Positions 182 through 61,074 of a stretch of DNA of 64,000 nt are shown in pieces. The notes beneath the pieces are model-generated. The model made no database searches and was not told the origin of the DNA. It saw only the letters and a list, made by a program, of their open reading frames with translations. The DNA comes from Octopus sinensis (Eukaryota): NCBI RefSeq assembly GCF_006345805.1, contig NC_043007.1, forward strand, positions 48,794,001 through 48,858,000, in the 5' to 3' direction. The stretch's first letter is position 1, and each line of letters opens with the position of its first letter. A program made the translations under genes and the position numbers.

Positions 182-223
182 GCTACTGATGGAGCCCCAA
201 AGAGGCAGAAATGAACATTTAGC
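182..223 (+). ncRNA. Degenerate type I hammerhead ribozyme motif
   Basis: GCTA-CTGATGG-A-GCC(CCAAAGA)GGC-A-GAAA-TGAACA-TT-TAGC; stems I, II and III all pair; A9 is G. Confidence 0.6.
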
Positions 224-364
224 CATGCCACCAAAACTGCTGGACAATTTTCATCTGTAATCAATATATTTTTGCGTTTTTAACATTGTACATCCACAAG
301 AGATACCTTCTTAGGATGAATATTACACTTAATATGGATTTTCATGATGTCTCTACATTAAGTA

Positions 365-401
<37 letters not shown>

Positions 402-718
402 CACAAACACACACACACACACATACATATATGTGTGTGTATGTGATGATTGTAAATAAGCATCATCATACAAGCAATGTTGTTTCCAGTTTTCCATGAA
501 AAACATGGAATATATTAACTTACTTGGCAACAGGAAGGGCATCTGGCTATAGAAAAATCTGCCTCAACGAATTCTGTCTGGCCTGAGTAAGCATAGAAAC
601 GTGTGAGTTACACAATGATGATAATGATGTGTGTGTGAACATGCACAGATAATTATGTGTTTTATGAGCTGAATGTATGTCCTTAGTACTGTAATTTTTA
701 TGTCCAATTTGATTGTAG

Positions 719-806
719 GCTTTATTGTTTTGGAGGGCACGGTCCTGACATAACTGACTTCTTATGTGACAGTGGTGAATATGTTGAAGACGTCAGCAGT
801 GATATG
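719..806 (+). CDS. KLHDC2: Kelch domain-containing protein 2-like, first exon in window (gene is 5'-partial)
   Basis: tgtag|...ATG|gtttgt; encodes LYCFGGHGPDITDFLCDSGEYVEDVSSDM (kelch FGG motif); phase 0 fits next exon. Confidence 0.88.
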
Positions 807-2082
807 GTTTGTATCTAGCTTTTACTCTTCTTATGTTCTCACATAACACATTTTAATATTTCAATTGGTTTTAGAGAATTCTTCATAGACTTTTGTAATG
901 CTCCAGCATGACTTCCAACTAAAGAACCACACAATAGTATGTTTTTTTATCAGATTAGTTTCAAGAAAGTGCTGTTCCCATGGCTTTTGCAGGCCCTCTG
1001 GAACAGGTGAGATTAACATGGTTAAAATTTGTCTTGAGCAGTTGCAGACAAAAGAGAAGGAAAAAAACATTCAGGATGGGAAATACAAAGATCTGACATC
1101 CCAAAGGAAAAGGGTTCTGTTTAGTGATTAGAATGTGTTTAGTAGAGTTGGTTTGGGCTGGAACTAAGATGAGTGATGAGATGAGAGGAGAGGTGAGTGA
1201 ATTGGGAATATCTGAGTAGAGAACACACAAGACCAGCTAGTTTTGAGATGCAGAGGCCACTATAGTAATAATGGAAAACAGAGAGGAGGCATGTATGTAA
1301 TCCACCATGTATCATCATTTACATAACTGCATATCCACCATGGGTCATTATTATGTGAGCAGGGACATTGACAATATATTAAGAAGTCTCTAAAACTTTG
1401 TAGATTCCAACCTACAAAGGTACTTGCTTCTGGTCTCTTAATTTGCTAAAAATAGCATCCAACTGCTAAAAGCAATAGTTGGGTCAAGATAAAGATCCAG
1501 TTTTATGTTCTTGGAGGACTCCACCTTGTCTGTTTCTGTTGTAGGTGAGAATGTCAAAGATGTTGATCGCTTCACTTATCTTGGCAGTGAGATTCATAGC
1601 AGCATTAGGAATAGTGTGTGTATATAACTTTGATAAGTTTCGGCCAGTATAGGCCCAGGCCATGTCTAACTAATATATTAATGATAATATATATAAAAGG
1701 AGATAACTCCAATAACATCATCTAATGTAAATTTTTCTAAAATAAAAGGCAATACAATTAGGAATGGATCTTGCTTTTAGACCCTTTGAAAACACAGACC
1801 TTGCACTGGTTATGTAATCACCATACCTTCCTCATGCACATGGTATGATTTTACCTGCGCATCAACCTCCTTTACTCTCACTATCCCATTCTGCCATACC
1901 TGAATTCCTATACACACCTCACCCTGATCCCATTGCAGTGTAATGGATACACTCCTATACATGCATGCACCCCACACCATTTTGCTTTCCAGCTCCCACC
2001 ACAGAACCCCTAACCTGCTGTGTTTCAACCCTCACTCCAAACACATTTTCTCATTTCCTCTCCTCTTTAATTTTCTTCTCTA

Positions 2083-2118
2083 TCTTCTGATGAAAGACTA
2101 AGATTCTAAATTTCAAGA
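2083..2118 (+). ncRNA. Highly degenerate minimal type I hammerhead relic
   Basis: TCTT-CTGATGA-AAGACTAAGATTCT-AAA-TT-TC-AAGA; stem I TCTT/AAGA; G12 missing. Confidence 0.4.
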
Positions 2119-2295
2119 CTTTCTTTTTAAGTGTTAAATTAATACATTTGTTAAAACTTGTCCCACTTATATTGTCTTCTTTCTTTTCATGTCCATTGCC
2201 TTTCTCACACACACACATATGCATGTTATGTATCTGTCTGTACGTGCAACGCATAAGTACCTATATATTTGCTATATTTCTTTATTTTTCAACAG

Positions 2296-2373
2296 TCTTA
2301 CCCTCGTGGCTGGAACAACCAACTCCTGATATTTGACTGTGACCTACATCGTTGGTCAAATCCAAAATGCACT
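2296..2373 (+). CDS. KLHDC2: KLHDC2-like exon
   Basis: aacag|...|gtaagt; SYPRGWNNQLLIFDCDLHRWSNPKCT resembles human KLHDC2 PRGWNDHVHILD...WSQP (recalled). Confidence 0.92.
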
Positions 2374-2414
2374 GTAAGTATATATATATTGCCATATTTC
2401 ATTACATAACAGTT

Positions 2415-2497
2415 ACCTCTGATGAGCACAGGGTTACATAATCGGACTGTTACCTAATACTCTGTTGAAACCCTAGTGCAAAACCGATTGGTAAGAT
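2415..2497 (+). ncRNA. Type I hammerhead ribozyme relic with long stem II
   Basis: CTGATGA 2419-2425; stem II GCACAGGGTT/AACCCT(A)GTGC; AAAA in place of GAAA; near-palindromic stem III ACCGATTGGT; GTA site. Confidence 0.75.
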
Positions 2498-3759
2498 CGG
2501 CCGTGATGGATATATAATACTTCGATTAATATATACATTTATATTTTTTACACATTTCCTAATATTTTAAATTTCTACTACATTACTCCCTGTGGGGTTT
2601 TATCTCTTGGCTAGCTTTTCATTTGTATGACTTAGTTTAGTATTACTTCTGAGCAAAACATGAATGTGACATCTTTTCAGCTCACCCCTAGAGCTTTAGT
2701 CCTTTAGCATTCAGATTGATTAACAAAGACTCTTTCCCTAACAAATGCGCTGTCTTTTAGACTATTTTATATTTACTACAATAGCTTCTACTCTCTGAAC
2801 TAGCTCCCACCTCACTCAAAGAACCCATCTGGCACACTTGTTTCTCTGCTCTAGATACCCCTGTATCTCATATTATTGACCCTCGCAGATCCCACACTAA
2901 TCACTTTTTATTTGCCCAGTCTTTACCTTAATGAATGTCAATACTCTGTAATTTCTGCACTTCCACCCAGTTTTACCTGCAGTTGTTTATGTTGAACATA
3001 AACTGCATCAGTCTCTCCATACTCAGAGAAAAAAAAATCATAAGAGCTGGCCCTTGCCCTTGATTAAACCCTTAAAGACATGTAAATTACTATCATTTTT
3101 ATGTCTGTTTTTCCACACTTTCACCAGTTTTTCCTTGTCTTCCTCTCCCACAGGTCACTTTCATTTGAACCCTTGGTACTTCTTTACCCTGTGATCCCCC
3201 TCCATACACATCACATGTCCACACTACTTTTCATTTTATACTCAGTTTTTCCCTCAGATCATTTGTGCTCTCTTGTTCATGTACTCTAACATTACACATC
3301 CAGCAGGGCATGCTTGCCTCATTTTCTGCACATCCAGTACATTCAGTGTTCCTGTTTCATTACCATACAAAATAATACTTCATACATAAACATCATACAA
3401 TCCAATCTTAACTCAGATAGAATCCCTTTGTTACCAGCCAAAGTAAAAGCTCCCTTGATTTTTTTCCCATCCTAATCTTATTTTGGCTATTCTGTTTTCA
3501 AATTACTTATCTCCATTATTGGTCATCTTGACAAAAGAAGCTTTCAATTACTTCTATGAAACCTCCCATGTTCTTATTGCCAGCTGTTTTGTGTATCTTC
3601 CTTGTCATTCTGCCAATGGTCTTAGCTGCACCTTTTGTGCACCCATAATTTACATTATGCACACTATATAGAATTCCTACTAACATATTGGCCACTTCCC
3701 AGTCAAGTTCTGTTTTCTTGCTAATCAAAATTTTTTGATCTTTGCTAGGTATACTTCGA

Positions 3760-4994
3760 GGCCTCTCAATTCTAGGTTTACTAACTTGTTTTTTAAATTT
3801 GTTTTGAAAACCTTCAACATTTTCAGCCTTAAGAATTAAGTCATTGGAACACAAAGACAGCTATAAAAGCAGGTAGTAATTTTACTTTGTACTTATTCTT
3901 AGTGCAAGTTTTGAAGAGTGCAGTTCGATTTTAACAGTTATTTTTTCAAAGCTATAATGGAAGTGACAAAGGAATATATTTGGCATATTTTGCTTTATGA
4001 GTTCAATAAAGGCAACAACGCAATGGAAAGTGCGAGGAGTGTTAATGTAGTATATAGGGATCAGAAAATAAGCATAAGCCAGTGTCATCAGTTGTTGCAG
4101 AAATTCTGAGCTGGAAACTACAGTCTAGAAGACGAGCCTTGTCCTGGAAGATCTTTAGAGCTCAACAAGGACATCCTGCAAACCCTGGTAGAACAACATC
4201 CCATCGTAACTGTTGAACTCGCATAGAAGCTTGGATTTGGTCATTCAACCATTCATTGACACCTGTGTGCCATCAGAAAAGTCTGTAAATTGGGTCAATG
4301 GGTTCCCCACAGACTTTCTGAGTCTAATAGCGTGCAGAGAGTGAATGTGTGCTCTTCTTTGCTGTCATGTCTCACAAAGGAACCTTTTTTGGATCAAATA
4401 GTGACTGGTGACAAGAAATGGGTTCTCTATAAAATTGTCAAGTGCCAAAGACAGTGGGTAGGGAAAGGAGAAACACTAGCACCCGAGGCTAAAGAAGGTT
4501 TTCACCCATGGGATATGAAAGGTTTAGTCCACTTTGAACTTTTAAACCCAAACCAAATGATAACAAAGGAAATCTGCGAGCAGCTTAAGTCAACACTAGA
4601 AGTAAAACAAAGGTGAAAGGTGTTCTTCCATCAGCATAATGCTTGGCCACATACAGTGAGGATGACATTTCAAAGGCTTGAGCAGTTTGAATGGGAAATG
4701 ATGCCTCACCCACCATATTATCATTAGATATTGCCCCATCTGATTATCATTTATTCTGCTGTCTTCAAAACTATTTGAACAGAAAATATATGAATTCTGT
4801 AGACAAGGTCAAAATGGCACTGGAGGAATATTTTTCATCATGGACAAGTGAATTTTGGAAGAGGGGCCTTGCGAGTCTACCAGATAGATGGAAGAGCATT
4901 GTAGAAAGTGAAGGAGAGTACATTTTAGATTAAAAAAGAACTTTATCTTAACATTGAAAAGTATATAAAAACCACATTATGAGATAACCCAATA
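3760..4994 (+). mobile_element. Decayed mariner (DD34D, Mos1/SETMAR-like) transposon
   Basis: MEVTKEYIWHILLYEF, WVPHRL, IVTGDKKW, DIAPSDYHLF, EGEYILD*; stops and frameshifts; 3' TIR-like end ...taacccaa|ta; 5' TIR not found. Confidence 0.92.
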
Positions 4995-8447: not shown

Positions 8448-9731
8448 GTAACAACACCCACCTTTTTTTATCTCTAATGATGGCATCATCTGCCTTGATA
8501 ATGTCTGTGTCTGCCTGATAATATCTGTGTTTGTGCCTGTTTGATAATGTCTGTCATCATCATCATTTAACTCCATTTTCCATGGCATAGGTTGGACAGC
8601 TTGACCAGAGCTGGCAAGGACAGTGGTCACACCAGGTTCCATATTTTGTCCTTAATGGAAGAAATAGATGTAACAGTGTATCTGACAAATGACCCAGGTT
8701 ACCGGGGCATCATTTGTGATAAATGTTCAGTAGGATATCTAGTGAACTGACAGGACACCTGGACTTCAGTTGTGATAGATTTTTAAGATTTTTAGTAGAC
8801 TGACAGGGAAGCAAGTCTTCATCTGTGATAAACATTGATTATGATTTTAGTCCGGCTGACATAGTACAAGGGCTTTTGTCGTAATAGATATACAAGCGTA
8901 AACAATAAGAATACCTATGTAATGGAATTTATGATCTATTTAGCTCACTAGACATTGTTCTGTTACTATGGTAGCCTACTTAGTGCATTGTAGTGATGGT
9001 AAGTAGATGCAGAGATAGTAGTGCAGCTAAAGTGTGGAGGGTATAGGGATAGTTCAGAGATCTGTTGCTTCTGTAGAAAATAAAGGCTTCCTTTCTGTGT
9101 AAAAAGTAGAACCACATACTAATGAGAGATGGACATTAAATGTATTAACCTACATAAGAGGTAGTGTACGAGAGAGAGGGAGATTGGGTATTAAAAATAT
9201 AAGCTGAGGTATGCAGGAAGAATGATTGTGTGGGAATGATGCATATAGCTGATAAATGAGTGTGGGCAATGTCTATTTTCTGACATTGAAGGATACCTGT
9301 AACTGGAAACCCAAGAATTAGAATTCATGGCTAGAGGTGGGGTTAAATAGATCTGAGGGTTTTGGACCTGAAAAGTTTGTGAGTTAATGCAGGCTTTAAA
9401 GGAATGTGATGTGCCGTATCACAGACTACTACACTATACCAGCATAGAAATTATCACTACCACTGTCACCACCATCATCATGATTACGTACTTTATTCTA
9501 CTGGTTTTCACATGTTGAATCATTGAACTGTGCAACATATATATGCAGAACATAGACATTAATGCAGAGATGCATGGAGACAAACTCATAGATGCTCACA
9601 TTGTGCGCGTGCGTGCACACACACACACACACACACACACTAACATTAGAATGATAATCACCTTCATCATAATATTTTCTAGGAGTGTTTCTCTCTCTTG
9701 CTATCCTGTGCTACTCTTCTTTATTTTTCAG

Positions 9732-9892
9732 CTGATATCTGGTTATTTGATGTAACTACTTTTAGCTGGATAATCTATGAGATGTCCTTCTCTATACCCC
9801 GCCTCTGGCATTCCTGTTGTGTCACTCCAGATGATGACGTCATCATATTTGGAGGTTGTTGTAGTAATATTTTGGATTATACCCAAAAAGCT
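9732..9892 (+). CDS. KLHDC2: KLHDC2-like exon
   Basis: tttcag|...|gtaagt; DIWLFDVTTFSWIIYEMSFSIPRLWHSCCVTPDDDVIIFGGCCSNILDYTQKA (PRLWH, VIIFGGC). Confidence 0.95.
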
Positions 9893-10900
9893 GTAAGTAA
9901 TAATAATTTCTTCTACCTTCTTCTGCAATGTCTTGTTGTCCTGGTGATGATGCTGTTGTGTTATGGTCTCAGAAAATTTCAGTTGGCAATACAGTTTCAA
10001 ATCTTAGTTGGAGATTTACATCATTAACATTCTAAAGTGGGGCTATAATGAATGCCATAACTTCCACTTCTGCACTTATAAATAAAATGAGGTTTCTTCA
10101 GGTTCACCTGCCTGCTAAGAATGGCAGCCAAATCTTCCTGAAAAGGGGTCATTGGAAGGCAGTCTGGGGTTCACTATGCCTGAAATGAATAAATGGAATA
10201 GTTATGGTTGGAATACCATTTTTGTCATATATCTGCTCAGTTAGGGCATACCTTGGGCTTAGCTTGATGCTGACTGAGTGTTCTTTCAATCTGAATGCCC
10301 ATTTTTGCTGGTTGAGTGAAATGAAGCCAACATGAAGTAAAGTGCCTTGCCTAAGGATACAATGTTTCCCAGCCTGGGAATCGAACCCATAACTTTGTGA
10401 TTGAGAGTCCAGTTATCTTCTGGCTTGTAAAGCATTTCAAATGGCATCCAGACATAGAAACTATGCCAAAACATATGTTGGAGTTCAACATAGTCATGTC
10501 CTCTGGCTCATTGGATCCTGTCAAATCATCTAGCCCATGCTAGCATGGGTTACAGATGCTAAATGATAATAGAAAGGAAGACACTTGTCCAAGGTGTGAA
10601 CCTTGAACCACATGGTTTGGAGGCAAACTTCTTAACAAAACAGTCATGCCTATGCCTTGTATTTGTTAATGCAGATTGTTTTCTTCGGATATTTTTGTGG
10701 AAAAATGCACCTCATAAGCAATGAAATGATAAGAAACCCTTGATCAGATGTTAGGGCCCTGATATATAGTAAGTAACTGATAAATTGGCTTAGCTGTCCA
10801 AAAGACCTGAATATCGTAATTAATTAATCCATTACTCTTCCTTCTTATCTCTATTGTGTGAAATTTTGTATCAGAAAGTATTTGTTTTTCATGTTTTTAG

Positions 10901-20657: not shown

Positions 20658-23145
20658 TTGTATAATATGTCTGTTCTTTATTTAAAACAAGTAACCACAG
20701 AGAGGTCTACTTATTGGCTCAAACTATATGCTTTTTATGTATATAATTAAATGTTCTAATTTGTTGACATGGAAGAAGAAGAGTACTAAAAACATCAGTG
20801 GATTAATTATTTAAACTGCTTCTGTTAGTCTCCTTCCATTGTGATTTTCAGACAAGAACTGTATACTTAGATATACTGGTAGTTATCATTCTCTGTATTT
20901 TCTAATATTTGGGGTTGTTTCCTCTTTACTTTTTGTGCTTTGTTGACAGGAGTATTGTTTGTTCTTGTTTTTGCTGGTTTGTTTCTGATTTATTGTTTCT
21001 ATTCCCTTTTGCCTGCATGTATTTGTATGTGTATGCATATATACTCACACACTCATGTGTGTATATATTAAATATAATTACACACATACACAATAACATT
21101 TCATTAATGACCCAATATGATACCTTCAAACCATGACTAGTAACTACTAAACTATTATAAAACAGGAAACGGCTTTAGAAAAACTTCTTAGCCACACAAG
21201 TGTATCTGTGTCCTTCTTAACCACACAATCATATCTGTGCTCTTCAGAATGTGGAATGCTTCATAAATTTGTGCAATTATTGTATAGAAGCTATGTTAAT
21301 AATTTCTGTATCTTTCCAATTCAGAATGTACTATTGAAGTTAGTACATATGCTAGGCCTCTCCATTGTCAAGTAAAAGACTAACTACAGTGAAGAATACA
21401 ATGGCAGTGATTTTGAACTGTGAGGTTACCATAGTGTAAAACTATAAAACGTCATGAAAATACCAATGGATTGATTCCATTAATGTTAAAAACCAAAAAA
21501 AAAAGTTATCTAAGAAGTAGATAAAATCTAATTACAAGAAAAAATATCATTTGTGTTCATTTTATTTTTTAGTTTCTAATTGAATTTTCTACTTGTGTTC
21601 CTCTTACGAAAATTGTTTATGTTGGTTCAGTAATTACTTTATTCTTTGAGCAGACTACTTTCTGAAATAAATCAAAGAACTGGCATTAGAATTAGTTAAT
21701 GTCTGTGATACAAATTAAAGGATTCATTTTTGACTTTGTTTAACACTCAATCAGTTTTAAATGTTTCAAGTGATCATATTCCATCTTCATTAAACATGGT
21801 TTATTATGTTTAACATTTGATTCACCAAACCAACAGAGGGCTGTCTCTATAGTTACCAGAACTACTCAATATGACACATTTTAACTAACCTGCTGTAAAC
21901 AGCCCTTGTTTCTTTGATCCAAATTTCCTATTTTAAAATGACCTAAATTAAAATCTTTGATCAAAATTTTGTGCTAATTTATATTCCAAACACCAGCTTA
22001 ATGACCTAGCTATTTTATTAAATTCTTCATTATTAAATTCTTCAAAATTAATTGAAATAAATGTTGTGTATTTCAACAGAAATTTGGTAACAAAAGTGTT
22101 AATTAAATTCTTTCTCTTTAAAATAGACCTGGGTTTATTAAGTTTGGTTCTCAGGACAAAATATTCCATGTTTAATGTGCCCTTTTTTTCTTTATTTCTT
22201 TCTAAGTCCACACTAAGGACTTAATTCTTTCTTCTCAAAAATGCAACCCTCTAGAACACCTACCCTTTCCATTTTTTCCCTAATGATACCAACATGTAAA
22301 AAGTTCGCAAACATTAACTTCACAAGTTGTCCTGTGGTCATGGCCACTGGCTCCACTTTATTGACTAAATTAGTGCCCTCTATCCAAGACTACCCACTCT
22401 GGAACCTATTTCACATTTGCCCACACAATCCTATTCTAATTGCAATAGATCAGAATAAACATCAATCGCATCAGTGATGCTCAGTTATTCTTAACTCCAG
22501 TCATGATAATTCTGTTGAAATATGCTTTCTTTATTTTGATATTTTTTTTTGCTTTTTAAAATAATCTTTTACTAGTTTCAGTCATTAGACTGTGGCCATG
22601 CTGGGGCACCACCTTGAAGAATTTTTAGTTAAAGAATTGACCCCAGTACTTACTTTAAAGCCTGGCACTTATTCTATTGGTCTCTTTTGCTAAACTGCTA
22701 AGTTACAGGGACAGAAACAAACCATCATCAGTTGTCAAGTGGCAGTGGAGGACAAACACACGTAGTTATATGTGATGGCTTCTTTCAGTTTCCACCTACC
22801 AGATCCTCTCACAAGGCTTTGGACACTCCAAGGCTATAGTAGAAGACATTTGACAGAGGTGCATCACAGTAGGAATGACCATGGAACCATGTGGTTGAGA
22901 AGCTAACTTCTTACCACACAGCCATACCTGAGCCTAAGGTAACTTATTATGCTAGTGTTTGGAATATAAACAAGAAATTTTGATGGAATGTTTTAATTTA
23001 AATGAAAAAGTTTGTGTCATAGAACTAAGGGCAGTCTCAGGTGGATTGACATTAAAAAGATTAAAACTGGGGAAGCAAAACTTGGAATATTTTGGAAGCA
23101 TTTTTCATATATTCCTGTGCGTGAATACTAAAATATTTTCTATTT

Positions 23146-28163: not shown

Positions 28164-28866
28164 CTAATTAAAAATAATAAAAATTTGTTTAAAATGACAT
28201 GCTTTATATATATTCATATCATTTTGTGACAGGAATAAATAGGATTTCTAGCAATTATTTAGTAATTATAGTGAGGAAGATATATATTCACCATTTAAAA
28301 GTACACAAAAACTGCTAATTTAATCAAATCCCTTAGCATTCAGATTACTCTGTCTAATGTCATGCTTATTTATTTACATTGCTTTGAATTAATCATTCAT
28401 TTTCTTATAGCTTCAAGATCTCAGTGATGCAACTGTTTATTTTTAGAATGACATTGAAGGGTGGGTGTGAGAAGCTAAATCTGGCAGATTTGAATGTAAA
28501 ACAGGTTGAATACTTGGGCCAGATACGATCAGTTTAAATTCTAAAGGGGAAATATTTTACTTGTTTCAGTCATTAGACTGTGGTTATGCTGGGGCACTGC
28601 CTTGAAGAATTTTTAGTGAAATGAATTGACCCCAGTACTTAATTTTGTTAAGTTTGATACTTATTTTATTAGACCCTTTTGTAGAACCACTAAGTTACGG
28701 GGATTTAAACACACCAATACCAGTTGTCAAGCAGTGGTAGGGGAACAGAATCAGACACAAAAACACACACAAATATATATATAGGGACTGGGGTCAATTT
28801 GTTTGACTAAAACTTTTAAGGTGATGCTCCAGGATGGCTGCAGTTCAAGTAAAAGATAAAAGATAT

Positions 28867-29138
28867 ATATAAATTCCTGAATGACAAGGTAACAAGAATT
28901 ACACAATCAACTGCAGCTGTTTCTGCTATAAAAAGCAGTGCACTCAGAGCTGAGTGCTTGTGTATGATCTTATAGCTTCCTTGAAATTATTAAAAAATAT
29001 TTAATGGCTCCAAGGAAGCTTATAAGATTTTGCACAAGCACTCAGTTCTGAGTGCCCTGCTTCTTATAGCAGAAACAGCTGCAAGCTAACAGATTTGATT
29101 GTGTCATTCCAGTTATCTTGTCATTCAGTAATTTATAT
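28867..29138. repeat. ~270-bp imperfect inverted repeat (foldback)
   Basis: Arms pair, e.g. ctgaatgacaag/cttgtcattcag and tgcagctgtttctgctataa/ttatagcagaaacagctgca. Confidence 0.92.
29005..29088 (+). ncRNA. Degenerate type I hammerhead motif (right arm of foldback; mirror copy at ~28908-28988 on -)
   Basis: TGGCT-CCAAGGA-A-GC(T)TATAAG...CTTATAGC-A-GAAA-CAGCTG-CA-AGCTA. Confidence 0.6.
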
Positions 29139-29721
29139 TACATACTAATGCTTTATTTTGAAGCATATGTATATTAAGTTTTAAACAACTAGTTATTAAC
29201 ATTGCTATGCCTAACTGAATTCATAATGTATGTGTGCTTGTATGTATGCATGTGAGGCATGTTTTTGTTAAAGCATGTCTCTAGAGGAAGGTTACTGTGA
29301 TATAAAATCAGGTATGTAGGGAATGGCATTTAACATTTTGGGGATTCTTTGCTGATGTTTGGGATCATAGTGCTCCCACATTTATGAGCCTGCAACCCAC
29401 ACTGGCACTGGATATCTTGGCCTGGCTTGCTTCTGGATCATGTGAGTAGAGTGGAAAGGATCTGTGAGTATGGTGAGGTGTTGTGCAAGCCTTATTGGAC
29501 CTAAAACTTTAGGCTGTGCAATCACCGACAAGGTAACTATCCAATGCACTGTTGAGTAGGAGGGTGCCACAGCAAGCATGGAAGCTGCAGATACATACCT
29601 GGGTGAAGCAGACAGCTCGTGTGATAACCTTATGCACAGGCATTGCTGGCATTTTGAATGAGCAATGGTCAGTGATGGTCTTCTTTGGTGATGAGTAGAT
29701 AGCCATCATCATCACCATTAT

Positions 29722-31093: not shown

Positions 31094-31095
31094 TG

Positions 31096-36222: not shown

Positions 36223-37262
36223 GCCTTCCTCTCAGATCGCTCCTTCCAAGTTAATGGTTCGCTGTCCAACGTCTCCAGTGCGAGCAGTGGTGTGCCTCAA
36301 GGTTCAGTGCTTAGGCCCTTATTGTTTTTAGTCTCCATAAATGACTTGCCCAACAACCTTACGCAACACACTCTTTTATTTGCCGATGATGTCAAACTAG
36401 TCACTCCTCGCAGTGATATAGATGATCTTCGTTGATGCCTCCACCAAGTTTGGAGATGGTCTAACGAATGGGACCTGTGTCTGAACGTGTCAAAGTGCTG
36501 TCATCTGCCTGTTGGCTCTTCTCCTGCAACTCAACTTGATTTCGAGCTGGGTCGTCTGCTGCTGGAGAAGACCGACCAGGTAAAGGACCTGGGTATCTTG
36601 GTAGATTCTTCCTTTTCGCCTTTGGCCCAGTGCGTCCATGCTGCCAACAAAGCACGCGGAGTTCTGTTTTTGATTCAACGGTCATTCGGAATGCTCACAG
36701 CAGCCATATTCCTACTGCTCTATGTCACGCTGGTGAGACCCATATTGGAGTATGGGATTCAAGCCTCTTCTCCTTATCTCCTCAAAGACATACATCATCT
36801 CGAAAGAGTCCAGAAGCTGGCTACCCGCATGGTTCTTGGTCTCAAGCATTTGTCTTATGAAGAAAGGCTGAAGATGCTCGACCTTTATTCTCTAGAAAAA
36901 CGCCGCCGCCATGGTGATCTCATTCTTGCTCACAACATCATAAGCGGAAAGTGTAACCTCTCGAAAGAGCTGTTCTTCACTCCTGCTCCAGAGCGTCGGC
37001 TGCGGGGTCACTCCAAAAAGCTCTATCTGCGACGATTTCATCTCAATCGAAGGAGAGGGGCTTTCTCTGTCCGGGTTGCAGATCTGTGGAATAAGCTGCC
37101 GGACGAGATAGTGAAGATGCCAACGACCGCTCGGTTCAAAGTCTCTCTTGACCAGAAATGGCCTGAACTCTTTGCATGAACACCCTCCCTGTACATAACT
37201 CCATGTCCCCCTACATGGCCTTGCTTTTTGCTTTTTGAGCCAAAAAATTAACTTAACTTAAC
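36223..37262 (+). mobile_element. Young 5'-truncated CR1-clade LINE nested in the R4-like element
   Basis: GVPQGSVLGPLLF, LFADDVK, LVRPILEY, LERVQKLATR, FSVRVADLWNKLP; (TTAAC)n tail; splits host FFEQ|NQEFNSNPKK. Confidence 0.95.
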
Positions 37263-38929: not shown

Positions 38930-41900
38930 ATGGTGACTGGTCAACAGTGAGAACAAGTGTAGCATGTCTGTCAAATGAGCATGAAAACCTTCTTTTCAGG
39001 CACTGAATAACATCTCCCCTCCCCATGTCTCCTTATACATTCCTTTCCCTGTTTTTAGAGTTGGCAATGTCAATGTAGGCACACTGAAAGGTAGGTCTAG
39101 TGAGATTGTAGAGATGCTTGATTGGAGACAAGTTGATGTATGCTGCATAAAAGAAGTAAGGTGGAGAGGGGCTTCAGCCAGGGTCCTCAAAGGCAAAGTG
39201 CATATGTATAAAATCTTCTGGGAAGGTAACAGTGATGGAGTAGGGGTATAGGCATTCTCCTTGTGGAGAAATGGGTAGTCAGGGTATGTGATAGAGTGCT
39301 TAAGCTCAAGCTAGTCTTGCAGAATAGTATAGCTACAATTATCTCTGTCTATGCCCTACAAACGGGCCTACAAAACGATTAGAAGGACTGCTTTTATGAC
39401 ACCCTTCTATAAGTCACCTCAAAGATGAGTGGCAATGACCTCATCTTTGCAGCTGGGCATGTCAGATGGCAATCTGGTATCTTCCATGGTGTTCACAGGG
39501 ACCATGAAATTGATTCCTGAAATGAAGAAGGAACTAGGCTACTGGAGTTCTGTGATGCATGCAAACTATTAATCTGCAACACTAACTTCAGGAATCCAGA
39601 TAGCCACCTGATAACCTATCAATCAGGTGACTCTGCTAGCCAGATTGATTTCATTCTCACCAAACAGCGGGATGCAAAGTTGCTCTTAAATACAAAGACC
39701 CTCCCTGGTGAAGAATGTACCCCCCAGCATAGACTAGTTATTAGTGACTTTAGACTCGAAGCCAGAAGGATGCCAAGAAGCAGACCAATCCAGAAAAGAA
39801 GGATTTGAAAGCTAAAGAACTTTTCACATGGTCAGAGATTTAGGGTCATCCTCACTGAGAAATTTGATGAGAGGGAGGAGACTTTGGATATAAAGGGTAA
39901 CTGGAAATTCCTATGGGACAGCTTATTAGGCACCACAGACCAAACCTGCAGCTGGTGCAAAGTCCCTTTCAGACCTAAAGTAACGTGGTGGTGGAATAAT
40001 ATGGTAGACAAGGCCATTAGAGCAAAGAAACAGGCCTGGAAAGCCTGGAACAGTGGGGCTAGCAGGGAACTGTACTAGATAGCCAGAAGGGATCTGGGTG
40101 ACAGGTATACATACCCAAGGGAGAAGCAGAAAAGAAGAAGTTTGCCAATGTTTAGTGACGTTGGCAAACTGAAGTACTTCAGATTGCAAGATAGGGTGTG
40201 AGAGAAAATTGTGATATCACAAGAGAGAAATGTGTCCACATGGATGATGGTGCACATGCTTTTAATGATTCTGCAAAGAAAGAGGCTAGGAGAAGTCATT
40301 ATGAAAGGCTGCTGGATGTGGAGAATGAATGGGAAGAGGAGAGCCTGCCAAATATTGACCTAGTAGAGGGACCAGCTATCTGAATAGATAGCATCCTGGT
40401 AGATAAAGCAATTAAGGATATGAAGTCAGGAAAAGCCCCAGCCCCTCAGGAATCACTGCTGAGGTGCTTACAATTTTTGGTGGTGTGGGTCATGGCCTAG
40501 TCACCCATATCGTAAATCAAGTAGTTCACGAAGGCGTCATACCCAATGACTGCCATAGCAGCATCATAGTCAACTGCTACAAAGGAAAAGGTGATGCTTT
40601 AGATAGACATAACTACAGGGGTATCAAACTGCTAGATCAGGTGATGAAGATCACAGAGAGGATCATAGCCCAACTAATTAGGGAGAGAGTCTGCTTAGAT
40701 GGGATGCAGTTCAGTTTTGTGCTATATTCCTGGTACAGCAACTGCAGGAGAAAAACCTAGCCAAAGATAAACCACTCTACATAGCTTTTGTTGACTTGGA
40801 GAAAGCCTTCGACAGGGTCCCCCGATCCCTTATCTGGTGGGTGATGCAGAAACTGGGGATTGATGAGTGGGTAATAAGAGCTGTACAGGGATGCTACTAG
40901 TAAGGTAAGGGTCAGCAATGAGTATAGTGAAGAATTCAGAGTTAGAAGTAGGGGTTCACTAAGGATCAGCCCTCAGCTCCCTCTTATTCATCATAGTCCT
41001 CCAGGCAATAACAGAGGAATTCAAGACAGGCTGCCCCTGGGAACTCCTCTATGCTGATGACCTTACTCTCATAGTGGAATCACTACGAGGACTTCCACAT
41101 CTGAAAGAAATTTCAGATGTGGAAGCAAGATTTAGAATCGAAGGGCCTCAGAGTCAATGTTGCAAAAACCAAAGTCCTAGTAAATAGGAAGGCAAACACA
41201 TCACAAACCCCTTCAGATAGATGGCCCTGCTTGATCTGTAGTAAAGGTGCAGGTAGAAACTCCATAAAATTTACCCAGTGTAAGCTATGGACACATAAAG
41301 GGTACAGCAACATCAAAGGAAGGTTAACTGGGAAGATAGCTTTTGTGTGCAGCAGATGCACAGGGGCAATAAGCACTGCAGATGCTCAGAAAACTGATTC
41401 CATCACATGCCAGGGGGAGAAACTAGAAGTAGTTGATAGCTTCCGCTACTTAAGTGACCAAGTCTATAGTTGGAGTGGATGCTCAGAGAGCATTGCCACT
41501 AGAATAAGAATAGCCTGGGCAAAATTCAGAAAGCTCCTACCTCTACTGCAACAAAGGGCCTCTTGCTCAGAGTGAAAGGTAGATTGTATGATGCATGTGT
41601 GCAAGCTGCCATGCTACACGGCATGAAACATGGGCCATGACTGCTGAAGACATGTGTAGGCTCAAAAGAAATGAGGCTAGTATGATGCACTGGATGTGTA
41701 ATGTCAGTGTGCACACATGACAGAGTGTAAACGCCCTGAGAGAAATGTTGGACATAAGAAGCATCAGATGTGATGTGCAAGAGAGACAACTGCACTGGTA
41801 TGGTCATGTGCTACGTATCGATGAGGAAAGCTGCCTGAAGAAGTGTCACTCCCTAACAGCAGAAGGAACCCATGGAAGAGGGAGACCCAAGAAGACATGG

Positions 41901-42570
41901 GATAAGGTAGTGAAGCATAATATTCGAACGTTGGGCTTCAAAGAGACAATGACAAAAGACTGAGACCTCTAGAGATATGCTGCGATTGAGAAGACCCAGC
42001 AAGGAAAGTGAGATCACAGCCATAGCCTACACCAGTGTCACATAAGTGCATAACCAGTCCATTTAAAAAGTATCTTTGAATCGTCAGGCAACATTCAGTG
42101 CTTGAGGAGACCTATTGAGTCAAGTAAATCAAAATCAAATGGAAATTGTTGTTGTGGCTGATACCAGTGCTGGTGGCGTGCAATAAACACCATTCATTTG
42201 TGAGTTGCTGCCAGAGCCGCCTGACTGGCTCCCCGTGCTGGTGACATGTAAAAAGCATCATCCAAACTTGGTCGATACCATCCCCCACCCCCTCCCCAAC
42301 TGGCTCCTGTGCCAATGGCACATAAAAAGCATCATCCAAACGTGGACAATGCCAGTGCCACCTGACTGGCTCCCATACTGGTGGCACATAACTAGCACCT
42401 ACTACACTCTCAGAGTGATTGGTGTTAGGAAGGGCATCTAGCTATAGAAACATTACCAGATCAGATTGAAGCCTGGTGCGGCCTCCTGGCTTACCAGTCC
42501 CCAGTCAAACCATCCAACCCATGCCAGCATGGAAAATGGATGTTAAACGATGATGATGATAATGATGATA
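38930..42570 (+). mobile_element. Near full-length decayed RTE-clade LINE
   Basis: APE endonuclease (RVGNVNVGTLKGR, SQIDFIL), RT (NYRGIKLL, FVDLEKAFDRV, LLYADD), WYGHVLR, GRGRPKKTW, (gat)n tail; many stops. Confidence 0.95.
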
Positions 42571-42644
42571 TATATATATATATATACATACAGATAGAGA
42601 GAGAGAGAGAGAGAGTAAAGAAATAAGAATGGATAGCTCAAAAC

Positions 42645-42753
42645 ATCACTACGTATGTTTCAATAGTGTGGTTATGTATACAACAATGCATAATAATTAT
42701 GTAATATTACATAGCTTCATACTGTTGTACAACATGCCATTTCATTGGGTGAT
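42645..42753 (-). ncRNA. Type I hammerhead relic with long stem II
   Basis: ATCAC-CCAATGA-AATGG...CTATT-GAAA-CATACG-TA-GTGAT; 5-bp stem I; stem III one change from palindrome ACGTACGT. Confidence 0.65.
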
Positions 42754-43116
42754 ATTCAGCCTTCCATCAGCAAAGTAAATCAATTATGTAGTGTTAGTAA
42801 CATAAAAGAAACAACATACATGTAGTATAATGATGGAAATCACTGACACATGTAGCAACATAGAAGACACCAACAAACATGCAGTATCATGTTACAAAGC
42901 ACTGCCACATGTAGCAACATAAGGGTTGCAAAACACAGGTATTGTTTTGGCAGAAACCATTGTCACATGTAACAATATAAAATGGGACAGCACAAACGAA
43001 TAACATGGTGGATATCATTGCCACATACAACAATACAAGAGGGACAATAAACATAGTAACATGTAGCAAACTGTAAATAAAAGTAAAATACAAAATCAAG
43101 TGGAATATATACTTAC

Positions 43117-45686: not shown

Positions 45687-47883
45687 CCCCTTGCAGAGAG
45701 ATTTAGTACTGACAGTCTGTGCTGTGTACCAGTATTAGGCCATTCAGTAACTACATAATTTTACATGCAAGGAATTTTACAGTGTATCTTCTCAGTGTGG
45801 TATATTTGAAAACACGGTGCTGCACAAAGTGAAATGCTGCACTGCTCACATTCAAAGTTTGTTTCTTTTCACACACTGCTCTTTGTACAAAGACCACATC
45901 TTCTGTACAGTCATGGTCTCCTCCCTGATGAGGGAATAATGGCAGGGAAATTTCTCCGTCAACCTTGCTGGACCAAGTAGAGCAGATGGTCTACCTTGTG
46001 GTGTGTACCCTTCAGGAGGGCAGTTGTTACACACTTCTTTGATCAGTGCTAGTCAAAAATCAAGAAATCGTTCCCATAACTGTCAATGCAAAGAAGGCAG
46101 TGACCAAACAAAGGTTGAGCAGATAGAAAAACATTTTCTTATACCATTTGATGGTTTTTCTATCACAGGAGTGAGATGTGGTCATTTGATTGGAAAAATC
46201 CACCTCACTCATGCCTTCATTGTAACTAAGAACACAATTTAGCTTCCTGACAATATTTCCGCGCTTATCAATTTCTGACATTTCAGCGGTATGTTGCATG
46301 GATAACATTTTTACAAGCTTTTTATCTTTCCATAACAAAGTGAGTAAACCACTTGTGATGGAATGAAAGTCAATCTCATCCTTTTATCAGGGTCAAATTC
46401 ATATCCTTGGGCATGTCCTTTAGATTCAGATGAACCATTCTGATTACTTTCGTTTTCTGTTAATAGGGAAACAGAAACAACTTAGGGCTGCTGAAGCAGT
46501 TGTCCATATGAACATTATACCCTTTGCTGAGCAGATGTTCATTCAGCTCCAACACAATCTTCTGGCTCACAGGAATGTCACTCTGCTCCTGATCTGAGTA
46601 TATTTTGTAATTGGATGTGCATCCTGACACAACACCTCCACTCTGGCACACTTTGAAAACTTTAATTCCGAATCGTGCCCATTTTTGGAGTTGTACTGCT
46701 TGAATTCAAGTCTACTTTTGAATTTCCAAAAAGACTCATCAGTAGCAACATCCTGGTCTGGAATATACACAGTTTTGAACTGTTCAGTCAGAATATCAAT
46801 GACTGCCACAATTTGAACAGTTGGTCATTATCTTCAAAATCGTTGTCATTGAAGTGCAGATTGTGTTAAATCTGCTTGAACTGATCGCAAAGCATCATAT
46901 TGTGAAAAAATGGTGCGCACAAAACTGGGTCCCTGGTTCAGTATAACTTCATATCCAGTTCGAGATGCAGGCCCATCAGTATCAAGAAAGACAAAAACAA
47001 GTCCAACCCATTGGGTGTGACATCTACCCACTTTCTGGAGTGACTTTGCTGGGTAAAGTGATGATTGGTAGCAGCGTACCAATTCCCAGTGTCATGAAAA
47101 ATTTGAGAAACTGGAGTGGCATGATCAATGCATCCACATTGAAGAATGTAATTTTGGGCTGCTCCATGAATCCATATCACTTCAGGACATTGTCCTTCTT
47201 TGACCAGTGTATAGTTTTACCAGTATCGCAAGACTTCCCAGCATATGCAGCCAGTGTTTTGTCAGAATCCAAGGATGAACTACCATCTCTCACAATTTCT
47301 GCAGGCTGTAGTGGTTCATCATTGCTCTCGCTGTCGGATTCTTAGTACTTGCTCTCTGGGCTTGAGTCATAATCTGACTCACTATCATCATCATCATCAT
47401 CATCATGGGAACATCCTGGTACCAGTTCTTCATGCCGCTGAACTTAATGTTTCAGAGGCATAGCGATTGCAAGAAAATTCATAAAGAGTTCAATAGCAAC
47501 ATCCATGCTTTTACAGATCACTTTAGTTTATGAAACTGAGCAGAAGTATTATTCACTTTTGCAAGCTTCTTAGTGGGAGTAATATTCACTTCTTCACACT
47601 AACAACAGAGATATGCATGACTACACATCAGTCACATGCATATAACCTCATCTGTGGGCATCACTTAATAATAACCCCCCAAAAAAACCCAGCTTATTCA
47701 AAATTCCAAACAGAAATGTAGGATGCAGTCATAACTGTCATCCACTGTTACCAGAAATTCTTAACAGTAAAGCAGGCTGTAGCAATAGTTGCTATGCAGC
47801 TGTACACTATTGTGGTTCCACCATCATCCAGCCATGCACACAGTGTTTCAATATAGTCAGTACCACTTCCTGTCTGCAAGGGG
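45687..47883 (-). mobile_element. Full-length decayed piggyBac transposon (PGBD4-like transposase)
   Basis: TTAA on both flanks; TIRs CCCCTTGCAGA/TCTGCAAGGGG; ATDESFWKFKSRL, VHMDNCFSSP, YNEGMSEVD, KWYKKMFF, C-terminal Cys cluster. Confidence 0.95.
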
Positions 47884-48809: not shown

Positions 48810-49135
48810 GAGATATGTGTATAATATAGCATGATTTAGTGTGACTGTGTATAAAGGATGGTATATTATAGTTGATAGTGTATATAGTATAGCATTGTAT
48901 AGTGTAGTAGTGTGGATAGTATAATATGGTATAATGTGGCAATGTGTATAGCTCAGCATATTATCTATGTGGCAGTATGCTTAGTATAATATGCTATAGT
49001 GTAACAGTGTATATAGTATGGTATGGCATAGTGTGGCAGTGTATATAGTATGGTATATTATAATGTGTATAGTAAAGTATGTATAGTATTACAGCATCAT
49101 ATTTCACAGTGTGACAGAGTGGTATGTCTTAGTAT
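48810..49135. repeat. Degenerate low-complexity tandem repeat
   Basis: Recurrent gtatatagtatggtat / gtgtggcagt motifs. Confidence 0.7.
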
Positions 49136-49178
49136 GGGAGTTAAGACATATCATAAGATGAATCAAATTAATCTCTAC

Positions 49179-51759: not shown

Positions 51760-52230
51760 AAATTTGATATGAACATTATCAGGCTGTAGCAATATTTCTC
51801 TACAAACATTGTCAGGTTGCAACAATATTTCTCTATAAGCATCATCAGGTTGTAACTATATTTCTCTATGAACATTACCAGGGTGCACCAATATTTTACT
51901 ACAGACATAAACAGGTTACAGCAATACTTTTCTACAAACATTATCAGATTGTAGCTGTATTTCTCTATGAGCAATATCAGGTTATACTAATATTTTGCTA
52001 CAAATATTATCAGGTTGTAGCAGTATTTTTGTATGAACACTATCAGGTTGTAGCTATATTTTGTTTTGAGCATTATCAGGCAGTAGCAATATTTCACTCC
52101 AAACGTTATCAGGTTGTAGCAATATTTCTCAATGAACTTTATGTGGTTGTGGCAATATTTCTCTGCGAACACTATGAAGCTGTAGCAATATATTGCTATG
52201 AACAATATCAAGTTGCAGCAATATTTCAGT
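51760..52230. repeat. 33-bp minisatellite, ~14 degenerate copies
   Basis: Unit ~ aacattatcaggttgtagcaatatttctctatg; explains the EKYCYNLIMF-repeat ORFs. Confidence 0.9.
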
Positions 52231-56531: not shown

Positions 56532-57178
56532 CTTGAAGACAATTAACAGGGGGTTAGTTTTAAAAAAAAAGAAAAGAAAGAGAAGAAAGAGGAAATGTAT
56601 AGTTTTAATTATTTTCTTAAGTGAGACAATCACAATATTACTAACTGTTCAAAAATAATATCAAACTACAGATGCATTAGCAATTTACAGTTTATAGCTC
56701 ACACCATAAATACAGTCAAATGTAAACGTCTTTATATACCATAGCTTAATGGACAGAAAAAAGGGAATCAGACAGACTAATTTCTGTTGTGTAACTGAGT
56801 ACCCTCCTTAACTCTTTTGATACCAACCTCATCAAATTGTTCATTATTTAAAAAAATTAATTGAAACAAAGACAGTGTATTTCAATAGAAATATGTTAAC
56901 AAAAAGGTTAACTACCCACAGACATGATACATATAAATTCACTGTTCTCATGTGAACTGGATGGATTAATTTGGTTATATATCATTCTCAGTCGTGAGTT
57001 TTATCAGTAAACTACTAATGTTAACAGTGTGTTTGTTTCAGTGTTGTACAATGCATAACATAGTACTGTCAGTATATGTTTAGATAACACACTATACATA
57101 TATAATGTAACCACATGTGGATCGTTGGCGATTTTTTCCCTCCGTTTTCCTTTTCTCTTGAACTTTCCTCCGTCTCCT

Positions 57179-57213
57179 GTTTCTGATGAAGGACTTTGCT
57201 TGAAACATAAAAA
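57179..57213 (+). ncRNA. Minimal type I hammerhead motif with intact core, in a ~220-bp pyrimidine-rich unit (~57110-57330)
   Basis: TTT-CTGATGA-AGG(ACTTTG)CTT-GAAA-CA-TA-AAA. Confidence 0.6.
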
Positions 57214-57323
57214 CTACCTTTCTTTCCTACCCTGAGCATCTGCTAATACTTTGTATGTACCGCATCCTTGCGTTGTTGTTTTTTCTTGTGTTTGCTCTTT
57301 ATTTTTTGTTTGGTTTTTTTTTT

Positions 57324-57360
<37 letters not shown>

Positions 57361-57533
57361 TTTGTATTGTAAAAGGTTGTTCTTTCCTAGGGATAAATTT
57401 TATTGAAACATACATCAGTTTAGCTCTATGTTGATTAACGATATTGGAAAAAAAAATTTTAAGATTATAAAGAAAAATGGAGAATACATACATAGGATAA
57501 TCAATTTATTTATTATATCAAAGTCAATTCATA

Positions 57534-57624
57534 TTGCCTACCAGGCATTTCAGTTTGTTGCTCCATCCAACTTTGCATATTTAAAGTGCATTAAAAGTTG
57601 AAAGCAAAAATCTCCTCAGGGCAA
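57534..57624 (-). ncRNA. Type I hammerhead ribozyme motif with intact catalytic core
   Basis: TTGCC-CTGAGGA-[GATTTTTGCTTTCAACTTT...AAAGTTGGATGGAGCAACAAACT]-GAAA-TGCCTGG-TA-GGCAA; 5-bp stem I; GUA site. Confidence 0.75.
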
Positions 57625-57637
57625 ATTGTCTTCCATT

Positions 57638-57728
57638 TTGTCCTGAGATCGTTTTTGCTTTCAACTTAATAAGGCACTTTAAATGTACAAATTTGAATGA
57701 GCAACAAACCAAAACATTGCGTAGGCAA
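57638..57728 (+). ncRNA. Mirror, mutated hammerhead copy
   Basis: TTGTC-CTGA(-)GA-...-AAAA-CATTGCG-TA-GGCAA; one core base deleted and G12 changed to A. Confidence 0.65.
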
Positions 57729-57799
57729 TATGAACTGACTATGGTAATTAATAAATAATGTGATTATCCTATGTATATATTCTCCATTTTCCTTTATAT

Positions 57800-57843
<44 letters not shown>

Positions 57844-57889
57844 CTGTGGTTTATGTGTATTTGCATGATGCACCATGTTCATATTTCTG

Positions 57890-58380
57890 TTTTGAACCTC
57901 TCTTTATCTTGTTATCATTCAGCCTAGCCCCTATACATCACTTATCCCCATGTGCTTCCATTCGTCCCTAAATTGTGCCCCTTTTCCATTTGGACCCAAA
58001 TTGTTTCCCTTTCATCTTCCCATCAACATGAAGGTCTCCCAGGTAGTCTCTTCTGACCTCTTGGATATCAGTTATGACTGCAAAGGTCCACTTGTTGTAT
58101 ATGAGCCTTGTGACATGTCTGGCCCAGCAGAATTTGTGCTTTTGGTATTCTATAATTATATCATTCACTCCACTGTGTTTTCAAATTACCTCATTTTGGA
58201 TATGCTTCCAAAAAATACTGTATAGTTTTAGCAAGTCTAAAGGCTTTAACTGTGTAATGTTCATTACTATTGTTTGGCAATTCTGTTTTGGAGCTGATTA
58301 GATTTTCATGTACCCAGTAAATAAAGATTTCTTGGTGTTTGCTGTGCCTCTGAGCCTGATTATGTTTCCAAGACATTTTC
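57890..58380 (-). mobile_element. Old RTE-like LINE 3' fragment
   Basis: KFCWARHVTRL..NKW motif. Confidence 0.65.
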
Positions 58381-58652
58381 TATATTACATTTTTCTTCTT
58401 TACATCATCCATTTTCATTTATGTCATACCAATTTTATCACTTTTCTCAATTATTCTACAGATTAAGACAATTCCTTGCAATTGGAAAGAAAGTTACTCT
58501 CTTGGAGAGAAAATTACACAGCTTCCTACTCTTAATTATTACTAAGAACTAAATTATAGCAACTTACATCATATTTATGTGATGACTTTATCTCTCTAAT
58601 GAGATAATTAGAGTTCAAACCCTACCACAACCTCAGATAAATAGGAACTTAC

Positions 58653-58750
58653 TTTTTAAGTGCTGCAGTGTGACAACATCAGTTGATTTATGGAAAGATG
58701 AAGATTTTTTAAATACAGGTTGTCCAGGATGTTGCTCCCAAGAAGTTTTC
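58653..58750 (-). CDS. PPP1R36: PPP1R36 exon
   Basis: ctgcag|...|gtaagt; KTSWEQHPGQPVFKKSSSFHKSTDVVTLQHLK; phase 2-1. Confidence 0.82.
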
Positions 58751-58896
58751 CTGCAGGTACAAGAGCATTAAAAAAAAACAGAAAACAGACAAAATGATTA
58801 TTAAAAAAATCAGAATACAGTTTCAACAAATTTTCTAAACAAGGAAAGATTACCAAAACACAAACACATGCACACAAATAAAAACAAAGAGTGCAC

Positions 58897-58936
<40 letters not shown>

Positions 58937-59949
58937 ACACACACCAACATACATATACATATATATTTATTTTATGCACACACATTTAGAACAGATGAGA
59001 GAAGTGAGGTGAGAGAGTAGATGTTTATTCTATTCATTCACAGCTGTTTCATAGTCTTGTCAGTTATATAATAGATGTTACATCAATTTTAACTTACATA
59101 TAAAATAGAACAATGTAATTTTAGAGGGAGAAGTTTAAAAAAAAAAAGAAATAAAAGTCAAATAACCAGAAAAATATAAACATAAATGATAAAATAAGTT
59201 TGTGAAAGATGATGTGGAAGGAATAAATTAATTTCCAAAGAGAGGTAAGTCGACCAGTCTAGTATTAATTTAGGTGAATAAATGAATAGATAAATATGTA
59301 AATAAATAAAGAAAATAAATAATGGTTTCAAATTTTGCCACAAGAGCAGCAATTTTGTGGGAAGGGTAGAGTCGCTTACATCAACCCCACTGTTCAACTG
59401 ATACTTATTTTATCGACCCTGAAGGATGACAGGCAAAGTTGACCATGGCAAAATTTGAACTCAGAACATAAAGACAGACAAAATGCTGCTAAGAATTTTT
59501 CCCAGCATGCTAACAATTCTGCCTGAAAAGTCATGTGGTCAGTTGGAAGAGAGGAACATAAAGGGTGAATATAATAAGGTTTAAAAGAAAGATTAGGACA
59601 GAAAGTGGGGCATAATTTGTTGGAATTTCATGCCCTGCCAGTTTTGAGGGATGCCAGAAGAATATTAGTATGGTATCAAATACATACATATTCTGAATAA
59701 TCACAAGCACATTAGCACACATGTTCATACATTCAAATGTGAGTATTAGTGCACACATACATACATACATACATACATACATACATACATACATACATAC
59801 ATACATACATACATACACACACACACAGACACAACCATTTCACACATATATATAGACACACACATGTATATGGACACACACATTTTTTACATATTTTATA
59901 TATAGTCATAGACTGGCAATTCCATTCATCCCCAGTTTGATTCAAGTAC

Positions 59950-60480
59950 ACAATGTTGAGAAGCCACAAAAATGGCAAGATATTGGTATCCATCATTCCA
60001 GAATTCGATCAGAGGTGAGTTGTGCACCTGTAAAGATGCATCATTACTCATGTTGGTGCCAAAATCACACACTGATTTTGATTTTCATTGAGTTTCCTGT
60101 TTTGGTAGTGCATGGCTTGGAATTTTGCAGTATTAAACTGCATGTTATTTTCCTTGGCCCACCTGTATATTGTGTCCAACTCACGTTGCAGATGCACAAT
60201 GTCTCCAGGGTTCTGTACCCTCTGAGAGACTTTTGTGTCATCTGCATAGCTAGCAAGAGTAGCTACTTGAGCAGCTAAGGGCATGTCAGAGAAGACCACA
60301 ATGAATGGCAGTGGCCAGTGCCCTGTGGAACACCACTCATTATTTGTGTTTTCTTGGACCCCATTGACCACCACTACCTGACTTCTATTTTTTTAGAAAG
60401 TCATGTAGCCATTCTCCAAGTTTTCCAAATATGCCAAGATTTTAGAGCTTGTGACAAATCATACCATGGCTGACTTTTGC
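59950..60480 (-). mobile_element. CR1/L2-group RT fragment
   Basis: LASYADDTKV...LQRELDTIYRWAKENNMQFNTAKF. Confidence 0.85.
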
Positions 60481-61044
60481 AGGGAATGCATTATCAGAAT
60501 GTTCACAAGTCCATAGACAACAAATCCAGGACACTAATGTTCACCAAATTCTATTGAGCAAACAGAAACATATGGTCAGGAAACGTTTCTAATTTTTCCT
60601 TTCCTCAAACCACATGACACAAGTGAGGTTAGAAGAAGGAGAAAGAGAAACAGTTTATTAAAATGTTCAAACCTGTTTTGAATGGAAATAACAACAATGA
60701 TATAATAACCAGTTAATGATGTGGATTAAAAAATATCTTTAACACATGAATATAAACAAATCACAGAAGACTCCCACCAACTGAAATAAAAACGATCAAA
60801 ACCAAGATTGCTCACTCATAAAATCATTACATGTAAACCACAAGCTGAATGGTTAAAATAAAAGCAGGATCTATGCCAGTAATATCAGTACGCCTGGCAA
60901 ACCATGAAGTTTAAGATGTATGCAGATTAGTCAAAACCGTATTTCAAAAATTCAGCTTGTTAGAGCCTTCTAAGAGATACAAAAAGAAGTCAGTCATTTT
61001 ACTATAGTTGTCAAGAATTCAACTGTCATTTAAATACATTTCGA

Positions 61045-61074
61045 AATCTGATGATTACTATGAAAGTGCTAATT
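61045..61074 (+). ncRNA. Possible minimal hammerhead relic with collapsed stem II
   Basis: AAT-CTGATGA-TTACTAT-GAAA-GTGC-TA-ATT. Confidence 0.35.

Follow-up and report, generated by a model that had tools for sequence, protein, structure and literature searches.

The window analysed here, a 64,000-nt stretch of the 2.72-Gb genome of Octopus sinensis (G000 in our numbering; contig NC_043007.1, positions 48,794,001 to 48,858,000, or G000:C11:48794001-48858000), carries ten motifs with the layout of a type I hammerhead ribozyme. These are very probably decayed hammerhead folds in stubs of eight repeat families, all of them likely dead 3′ ends of Penelope-like elements (PLEs) or of non-coding derivatives. 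The motifs had been listed in a first-pass annotation, and each of its ten coordinates was confirmed to lie at an end of such a motif (Table 1; families are named after these coordinates). Three of the ten lie on the minus strand, and 28908/29005 and 57534/57638 form two head-to-head (inverted) pairs. Positions within the motif follow the conventional hammerhead numbering. All core letters were kept in only 3/10 window copies (core starts 57183, 57619 and 61048), yet stem II or III is damaged in each of these, and inactivity is predicted for the copies in the window. The window itself has a GC content of 36.6% and holds many microsatellites as well as broken pieces of LINEs (long interspersed nuclear elements) and of DNA transposons.

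The genome was searched with each of the eight insertions, 39–40 candidates were scored per search, and a dispersed family was found for every motif (41–46 matches per search). The first-look candidates numbered at least 289 for family 182, at least 167 for 2083, at least 1,813 for 2415, at least 441 for 29005, at least 39 for 42645, at least 4,358 for 57179, at least 58 for 57638 and at least 726 for 61045. When 20–30 loci per search were aligned, CUGANGA, GAAA and UH were the column-wise commonest letters in 8/8 families. Fully intact cores were present across the families in 14/25, 4/24, 13/30, 8/26, 6/16, 19/28, 11/19 and 16/19 of the rows with a 5′ core half; gapped rows and rows lacking that half (two in 29005, nine in 42645 and five in 57638) were excluded. 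In family 29005, positions 4 and 5 are split (T15/C11 and A14/G12), the pattern expected if a U4C core had undergone CpG decay. Changes from CG to CA or TG are read here as methylation decay.

The stems pair within families and rarely across them. A stem I run of at least three pairs was formed by the family's own arms in 7/8 families, but by only 3/56 cross-family arm pairs, and the corresponding values for stem II were 8/8 and 6/56; since the register was picked by the best stem I, these counts are slightly favourable to pairing. The inner letters of stem III are self-complementary at 38/41 positions if G-U is allowed. With regards to the earlier claim, it can be concluded that there are several independent families, whose stems are unrelated but pair and whose stem III is nearly palindromic, including U4C and long stem II forms of the Penelope/retrozyme type. 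The core halves are spaced by 12–15 nt in four families and by 54, 54, 66 and 81 nt in the other four. The long inserts of 2415, 29005 and 42645 were paired in minimum free energy folds.

The link to PLEs comes from the sequence upstream of the motifs. Four of the eight families (2415, 57179, 57638 and 61045) continue into PLE endonuclease or reverse transcriptase (RT) sequence and, because of this coding sequence, are taken as 5′-truncated 3′ ends of protein-coding (autonomous) PLEs. The assignment was made by Pfam RVT_1 and GIY-YIG hits and linker motifs. In family 61045, three loci (L202, L203 and L214) align over approximately 1.5 kb upstream in one alignment, which runs from RT motifs through GIY-YIG and the 3′ untranslated region (UTR) to the motif. 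The window copy retains the last codons of the open reading frame (ORF) as a broken GIY-YIG C-terminus directly upstream of motif 61045, and the statement in the first-pass annotation that no Penelope ORF could be read is not entirely correct. In family 2415, three loci (L143, L150 and L124) align 610–850 nt upstream into a PLE endonuclease C-terminus. For family 57179, where 30 loci were chosen with its upstream region, the same GIY-YIG end was found 700–1310 nt upstream in 4/30 long copies and an RT piece in one more, and the alignment of L309 with L323 extends from the end of the ORF through the motif. Family 57638 was approached by endonuclease peptide alone: in 9/30 loci chosen in this way the motif follows downstream on the same strand, and in 5/30 an inverted copy lies upstream (four places, as two of these loci are one place). 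A GIY-YIG sequence upstream of family 57638 in L071 was left out of this count because it belongs to another family. Craig et al. (2021, PMC8557442) describe Neptune-type endonucleases by a CX2-5CxxC linker plus CCHH and Hydra-type ones by a CxCX5C linker and no CCHH; the peptide motifs of the GIY-YIG endonuclease linked to 57638 match the Hydra type in section 11 of that paper, a label by motif only. None of these four ORF-linked families has a fixed short monomer, as no sharp period was seen. A second broken PLE GIY-YIG remnant, split by a common short repeat, is located at 33913-34620 (minus strand), with no hammerhead visible by eye within 1.2 kb downstream.

The insertions resemble those of endonuclease-positive (EN+) PLEs in their variable 5′ truncation, the two adjacent inverted pairs in the window and their microsatellite ends, with 4/8 window insertions ending 3′ at (TA)n. 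In the unbiased sets, most stubs have their 5′ end no more than ~100 nt from the core; the 3′ ends follow 100–250 nt behind it. Canonical C-terminal EN+ PLEs, as described in PMC8557442, share the heavy 5′ truncation, the inverted 5′ copies and the (TA)n targets, together with the order of RT followed by GIY-YIG and a hammerhead in the 3′ region; when set beside the EN+ clades, our labels are motif labels only. From the accounts in PMC4209133, PMC6765202 and PMC8557442, an active parent PLE would have been transcribed as a tandem, in which two hammerheads may pair via their palindromic stems III, with a cut following position 17. Copying of the RNA into microsatellite DNA by the RT-endonuclease would then be target-primed and begin 100–200 nt 3′ of the motif. 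It would usually stop or invert early and leave stubs, which would afterwards mutate neutrally; many of the core losses are of the CpG type. Family 182 could have been copied in trans from an RNA of more than unit length.

Several results weigh against an origin of all ten motifs from PLE ends or their derivatives. No target-site duplications were defined for the insertions. For families 2083, 29005, 42645 and 182, no in-register PLE ORF link was found in the loci searched for ORF-linked long copies (4, 17 exact-pattern, 25 and 30 loci, respectively). The few hits near these families (L418/L457, L105, L480 and L483) were rejected as not in register. For family 57638, RNAalifold on 17 copies yielded no consensus structure, and the family's long stem II insert is therefore not counted as a conserved helix. 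Finally, a motif scan of the window alone gives a weak signal, barely above shuffled sequence, when compared with 30 block-wise dinucleotide shuffles at seven settings. The strict descriptor matched once in the window against a shuffled mean of 0.33, a count reached in 8/30 shuffles. With one mismatch allowed, there were 5 matches against 1.7 (reached in 0/30), but 3/5 lie outside the ten motifs, and with two mismatches, 28 against 16.7 (reached in 1/30), again including matches outside them. The remaining four settings showed no significant excess. Thus, of the checks proposed in the first-pass annotation, density nearly fails against shuffles, while the family consensi restore the core throughout.

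Family 182 takes a separate position, as it forms a ~342-nt head-to-tail unit (GC 36%) with one type I hammerhead per unit, in which the sequence downstream of the motif continues into that upstream of it. Upstream flanks matched the downstream flanks of at least three other loci in 23/55 cases in the 350-nt bin and in 18 in the 325-nt bin; in the other families the same test never exceeded 5 in any bin. Natural dimers with motifs 341 and 345 nt apart were observed, and L472 and L175 contain dimers. In 13 copies including the window copy, the motif is flanked on either side by a direct repeat, with periods of 272–373 nt in 12 of them; the window copy has a period of 306 nt because of a deletion. 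As 30 of the loci were added by a search with the upstream region, long copies are favoured in this set. A 272-nt triple in L465, with host flank as part of it, was read as a local duplication. No in-register PLE protein match and no ORF were found in the 55 loci. By its sequence, the layout is that of animal non-LTR (long terminal repeat) retrozymes. It shares with them, as far as described in PMC7229834 and by Li et al. (2026, bioRxiv 10.64898/2026.07.22.740005), the size and GC content of the monomer, the single type I hammerhead per unit, the occurrence as monomers and dimers and the lack of a detected ORF, and its unit lies within the 150–450-nt head-to-tail retrozyme criterion. In contrast to those retrozymes, family 182 is old and decayed, mostly consists of 1–1.5 units, has a minimal instead of a canonical hammerhead and is known here from DNA alone.

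The first-pass annotation had inferred more broadly that non-coding, ribozyme-bearing retroelements of diverse kinds occur in this genome; in the corresponding reading, most of the families are stand-alone retrozyme-type elements that spread via small circular RNAs. For family 182, the non-coding character stands, and its fixed period, longer-than-unit insertions and missing ORF all favour such a mode of spread. Three further families (2083, 29005 and 42645) also lack an ORF link and reach only a short distance in the 5′ direction, and 18 motifs of family 42645 form an ORF-less array at G000:C2:182593500-182603400 (L455). However, the four families that run into PLE coding sequence speak against the claim, no sharp period was detected in 2083, 29005 or 42645, and the one family 182 unit folded as a circle was only ~1.7 standard deviations below shuffles. 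As an account of most families, this explanation is improbable. The motifs of the L455 array alternate in orientation over ~8 kb, in repeats 67–84% alike, and its appearance is that of a fold-back stub expanded in tandem long ago. Three 42645 motifs on C2 with a spacing of 3.1 kb were rejected as a full PLE tandem, since they are part of this array.

It is far less likely still that the motifs are host-domesticated ribozymes acting on transcripts of the window locus. Domesticated intronic hammerheads are known in amniotes, according to PMC6155905, and some copies may be intronic because the window contains an exon of a Kelch-repeat protein (9683-10027, plus strand; Pfam Kelch_4 above cut-off). 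Nevertheless, core letters are lost in 7/10 window copies, stems are damaged in the other three, and the window copies are no more intact than other copies of their families. Chance matches to a loose descriptor, for which one could cite the near-shuffle counts in most settings and the Rfam scan of the window without a hammerhead match at E ≤ 5, have practically no likelihood left, as this reading is already refuted by family alignments that place all ten motifs in dispersed families with restored cores and family-specific stem pairing. Our preferred reading remains that of PLE 3′ ends and their derivatives.

The density of one motif per 6–7 kb, given in the first-pass annotation, holds for the window only; 40 random 10-kb stretches taken at round coordinates (400 kb) did not yield it again. 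Here, the family profiles gave 10 hits, comprising 3 of window families, 4 of the A6U family described below and 3 weak 57638-profile matches, which were dropped for want of a core, while the reversed sequence gave none. With the strict descriptor, 5 further motifs, intact and belonging to other families, and 1 doubtful hit were obtained. The detectable density is therefore ~12 per 400 kb (roughly one per 33 kb), which is a minimum because old copies of unidentified families are missed. Hammerheads with intact cores from families absent from the window were seen in L291, L292, L355, L362, L366 and L372, some with a long stem II, and two tandem pairs among them are 546–558 nt apart.

The kind of motif is already in print. 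Minimal type I hammerheads (min-HHR) occur in the pseudo-LTRs of metazoan PLEs (Cervera and de la Pena 2014, PMC4209133), and their cleavage as dimers is attributed to Lunse et al. in the review PMC6765202. With the min-HHR of PMC4209133, our families share the type I order, the short stem I, the extra nucleotide before stem II and the palindromic stem III, as well as the presence of many families per genome, mostly as single motifs from truncated PLEs, with opposite-strand pairs and few ORF-tied copies. In contrast to the helix II of 7–8 bp described there, four families here have 54–81 nt between the core halves; in addition, one is U4C, and a neighbouring family has U at position 6, where the core variant of that study is U3-A8. 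The window is a textbook case: the known class gains eight families, and hammerhead-like relics in an animal genome are seen to be, for the most part, ends of dead transposons. Less ordinary at the sequence level are the forms with a long stem II and the A6U family nearby.

This neighbouring family is a very abundant young PLE family, in which the hammerhead core CUGUNGA (A6U) is found downstream of a second type of endonuclease. A copy (L151:882) is located 480 nt ahead of the window start, and none was found inside the window. The motif ends elements with open frames of 675–952 amino acids that hold RT and GIY-YIG (L283, L284 and L285), and three long copies are 91–94% alike. A 27-nt pattern of the family with positions 6 and 7 left free gave 13,792 exact matches in the genome and 0 in the reversed control. 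Position 6 was U in 13,318 of them and another letter in 474, mostly C among the first 100 matches listed. When loci were chosen by the protein alone, the motif was present in 22/32 and position 6 was T in 22/22, while N7 was T14, C4, G3 and A1 and H17 was A11, T10 and G1. The mean top-letter share in these loci was 0.92 in the motif versus 0.69 and 0.80 in the flanks. Four runs, carrying four organism labels, provided contigs in which no other letter exceeded 5% at position 6, and positions 7 and 17 varied. In the sister family 57179, position 6 is A in 28/28 rows. Family 2083 shows weak cross-matches to the profiles of both 57179 and the A6U family, which suggests a kinship at the sequence level.

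No report of an A6U/CUGUNGA hammerhead was found in the literature searched, including supplement file 2 of PMC4209133, though Lunse et al. or the supplements of PMC8557442 may hold such forms; one literature match was set aside as it concerns twister ribozymes. The natural variant A6C is already known, with low activity in Mg2+ and a preference for Mn2+ (PMC3088659, PMC7151607). Tentatively, and at somewhat less than even chance, the PLEs of this genome may have explored hammerhead forms outside the usual descriptors, with 54–81-nt stem II inserts in four families and a fixed A6U with positions 7 and 17 free. If the CUGUNGA motif still cuts as a dimer, it would be a core variant that occurs in nature and is overlooked by standard searches, perhaps with an altered metal preference like A6C. 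If it does not, it would show that a PLE can retain the fold through selection for a role other than cleavage. An open question named in PMC8557442 is whether PLEs require their hammerheads for transposition or simply carry them along. The A6 (57179) and U6 sister families in one genome would offer a natural test of it, the U6 family being the one that is present in very many copies and has ORFs close to intact.

Table 1. Hammerhead-bearing insertions in the window and the associated PLE remnant (positions of the window; core changes by hammerhead numbering).
Family	Position	Strand	Type of copy	Hammerhead	Core start	Core	Stems	3′ microsatellite
182	12..366	+	longer-than-unit insertion of ORF-less, retrozyme-like ~342-nt head-to-tail element	180-224	186	A9G		(TA)n 367-401
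2083	2030..2202	+	stub; no ORF link found	minimal, 2082-2118	2087	G12U	decayed	
2415	2378..2530	+	stub	2410-2504	2419	G12A	54-nt stem II insert; 8-nt palindromic stem III	
29005	28858..28994	-	inverted arm	28908-28990	28984	C3U/G5A/U16.1C		
29005	28995..29230	+	direct arm (U4C family); no ORF link found	29005-29088	29010	G5A (CpG-type decay), U16.1C	55-nt stem II insert	
42645	42570..42780	-	stub; no ORF link found	42642-42756	42748	G5A	81-nt stem II insert	
57179	57073..57326	+	stub	minimal, 57179-57213	57183	letters intact	stem II and ACGT palindrome decayed	(TA)n 57327-57358
57638	57466..57632	-	inverted arm	57534-57624	57619	letters intact	stems II and III damaged	
57638	57633..57798	+	direct arm	from 57638	57643	G8A/A9U, G12 lost	~66-nt stem II insert	(TA)n 57795-57840
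61045	60480..61199	+	broken PLE ORF end, 3′ UTR and hammerhead	61045-61074	61048	letters intact	8 nt lost from stem II	(AT)n 61200-61318
61045	60556..60686	+	GIY-YIG endonuclease C-terminus remnant, frameshifted; tblastn E 2e-08 against L203 fragment					

Further features of the window include a match resembling U6 small nuclear RNA at 21245-21346 (minus strand), which, at 38.9 bits, falls short of the Rfam gathering score of 44 bits and is probably a decayed copy. Fragments of LINE reverse transcriptase and DDE transposase are located at 34692-35312 (minus strand), 36436-37179 (plus), 41105-41575 (plus), 4260-4616 (plus) and 46060-46383 (minus). Those at 36436-37179 and 41105-41575 have no Pfam hit and are presumably of this kind by their motifs. 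Degenerate minisatellites are present at 51768-52227 (33-nt) and 48816-49089 (32-nt).

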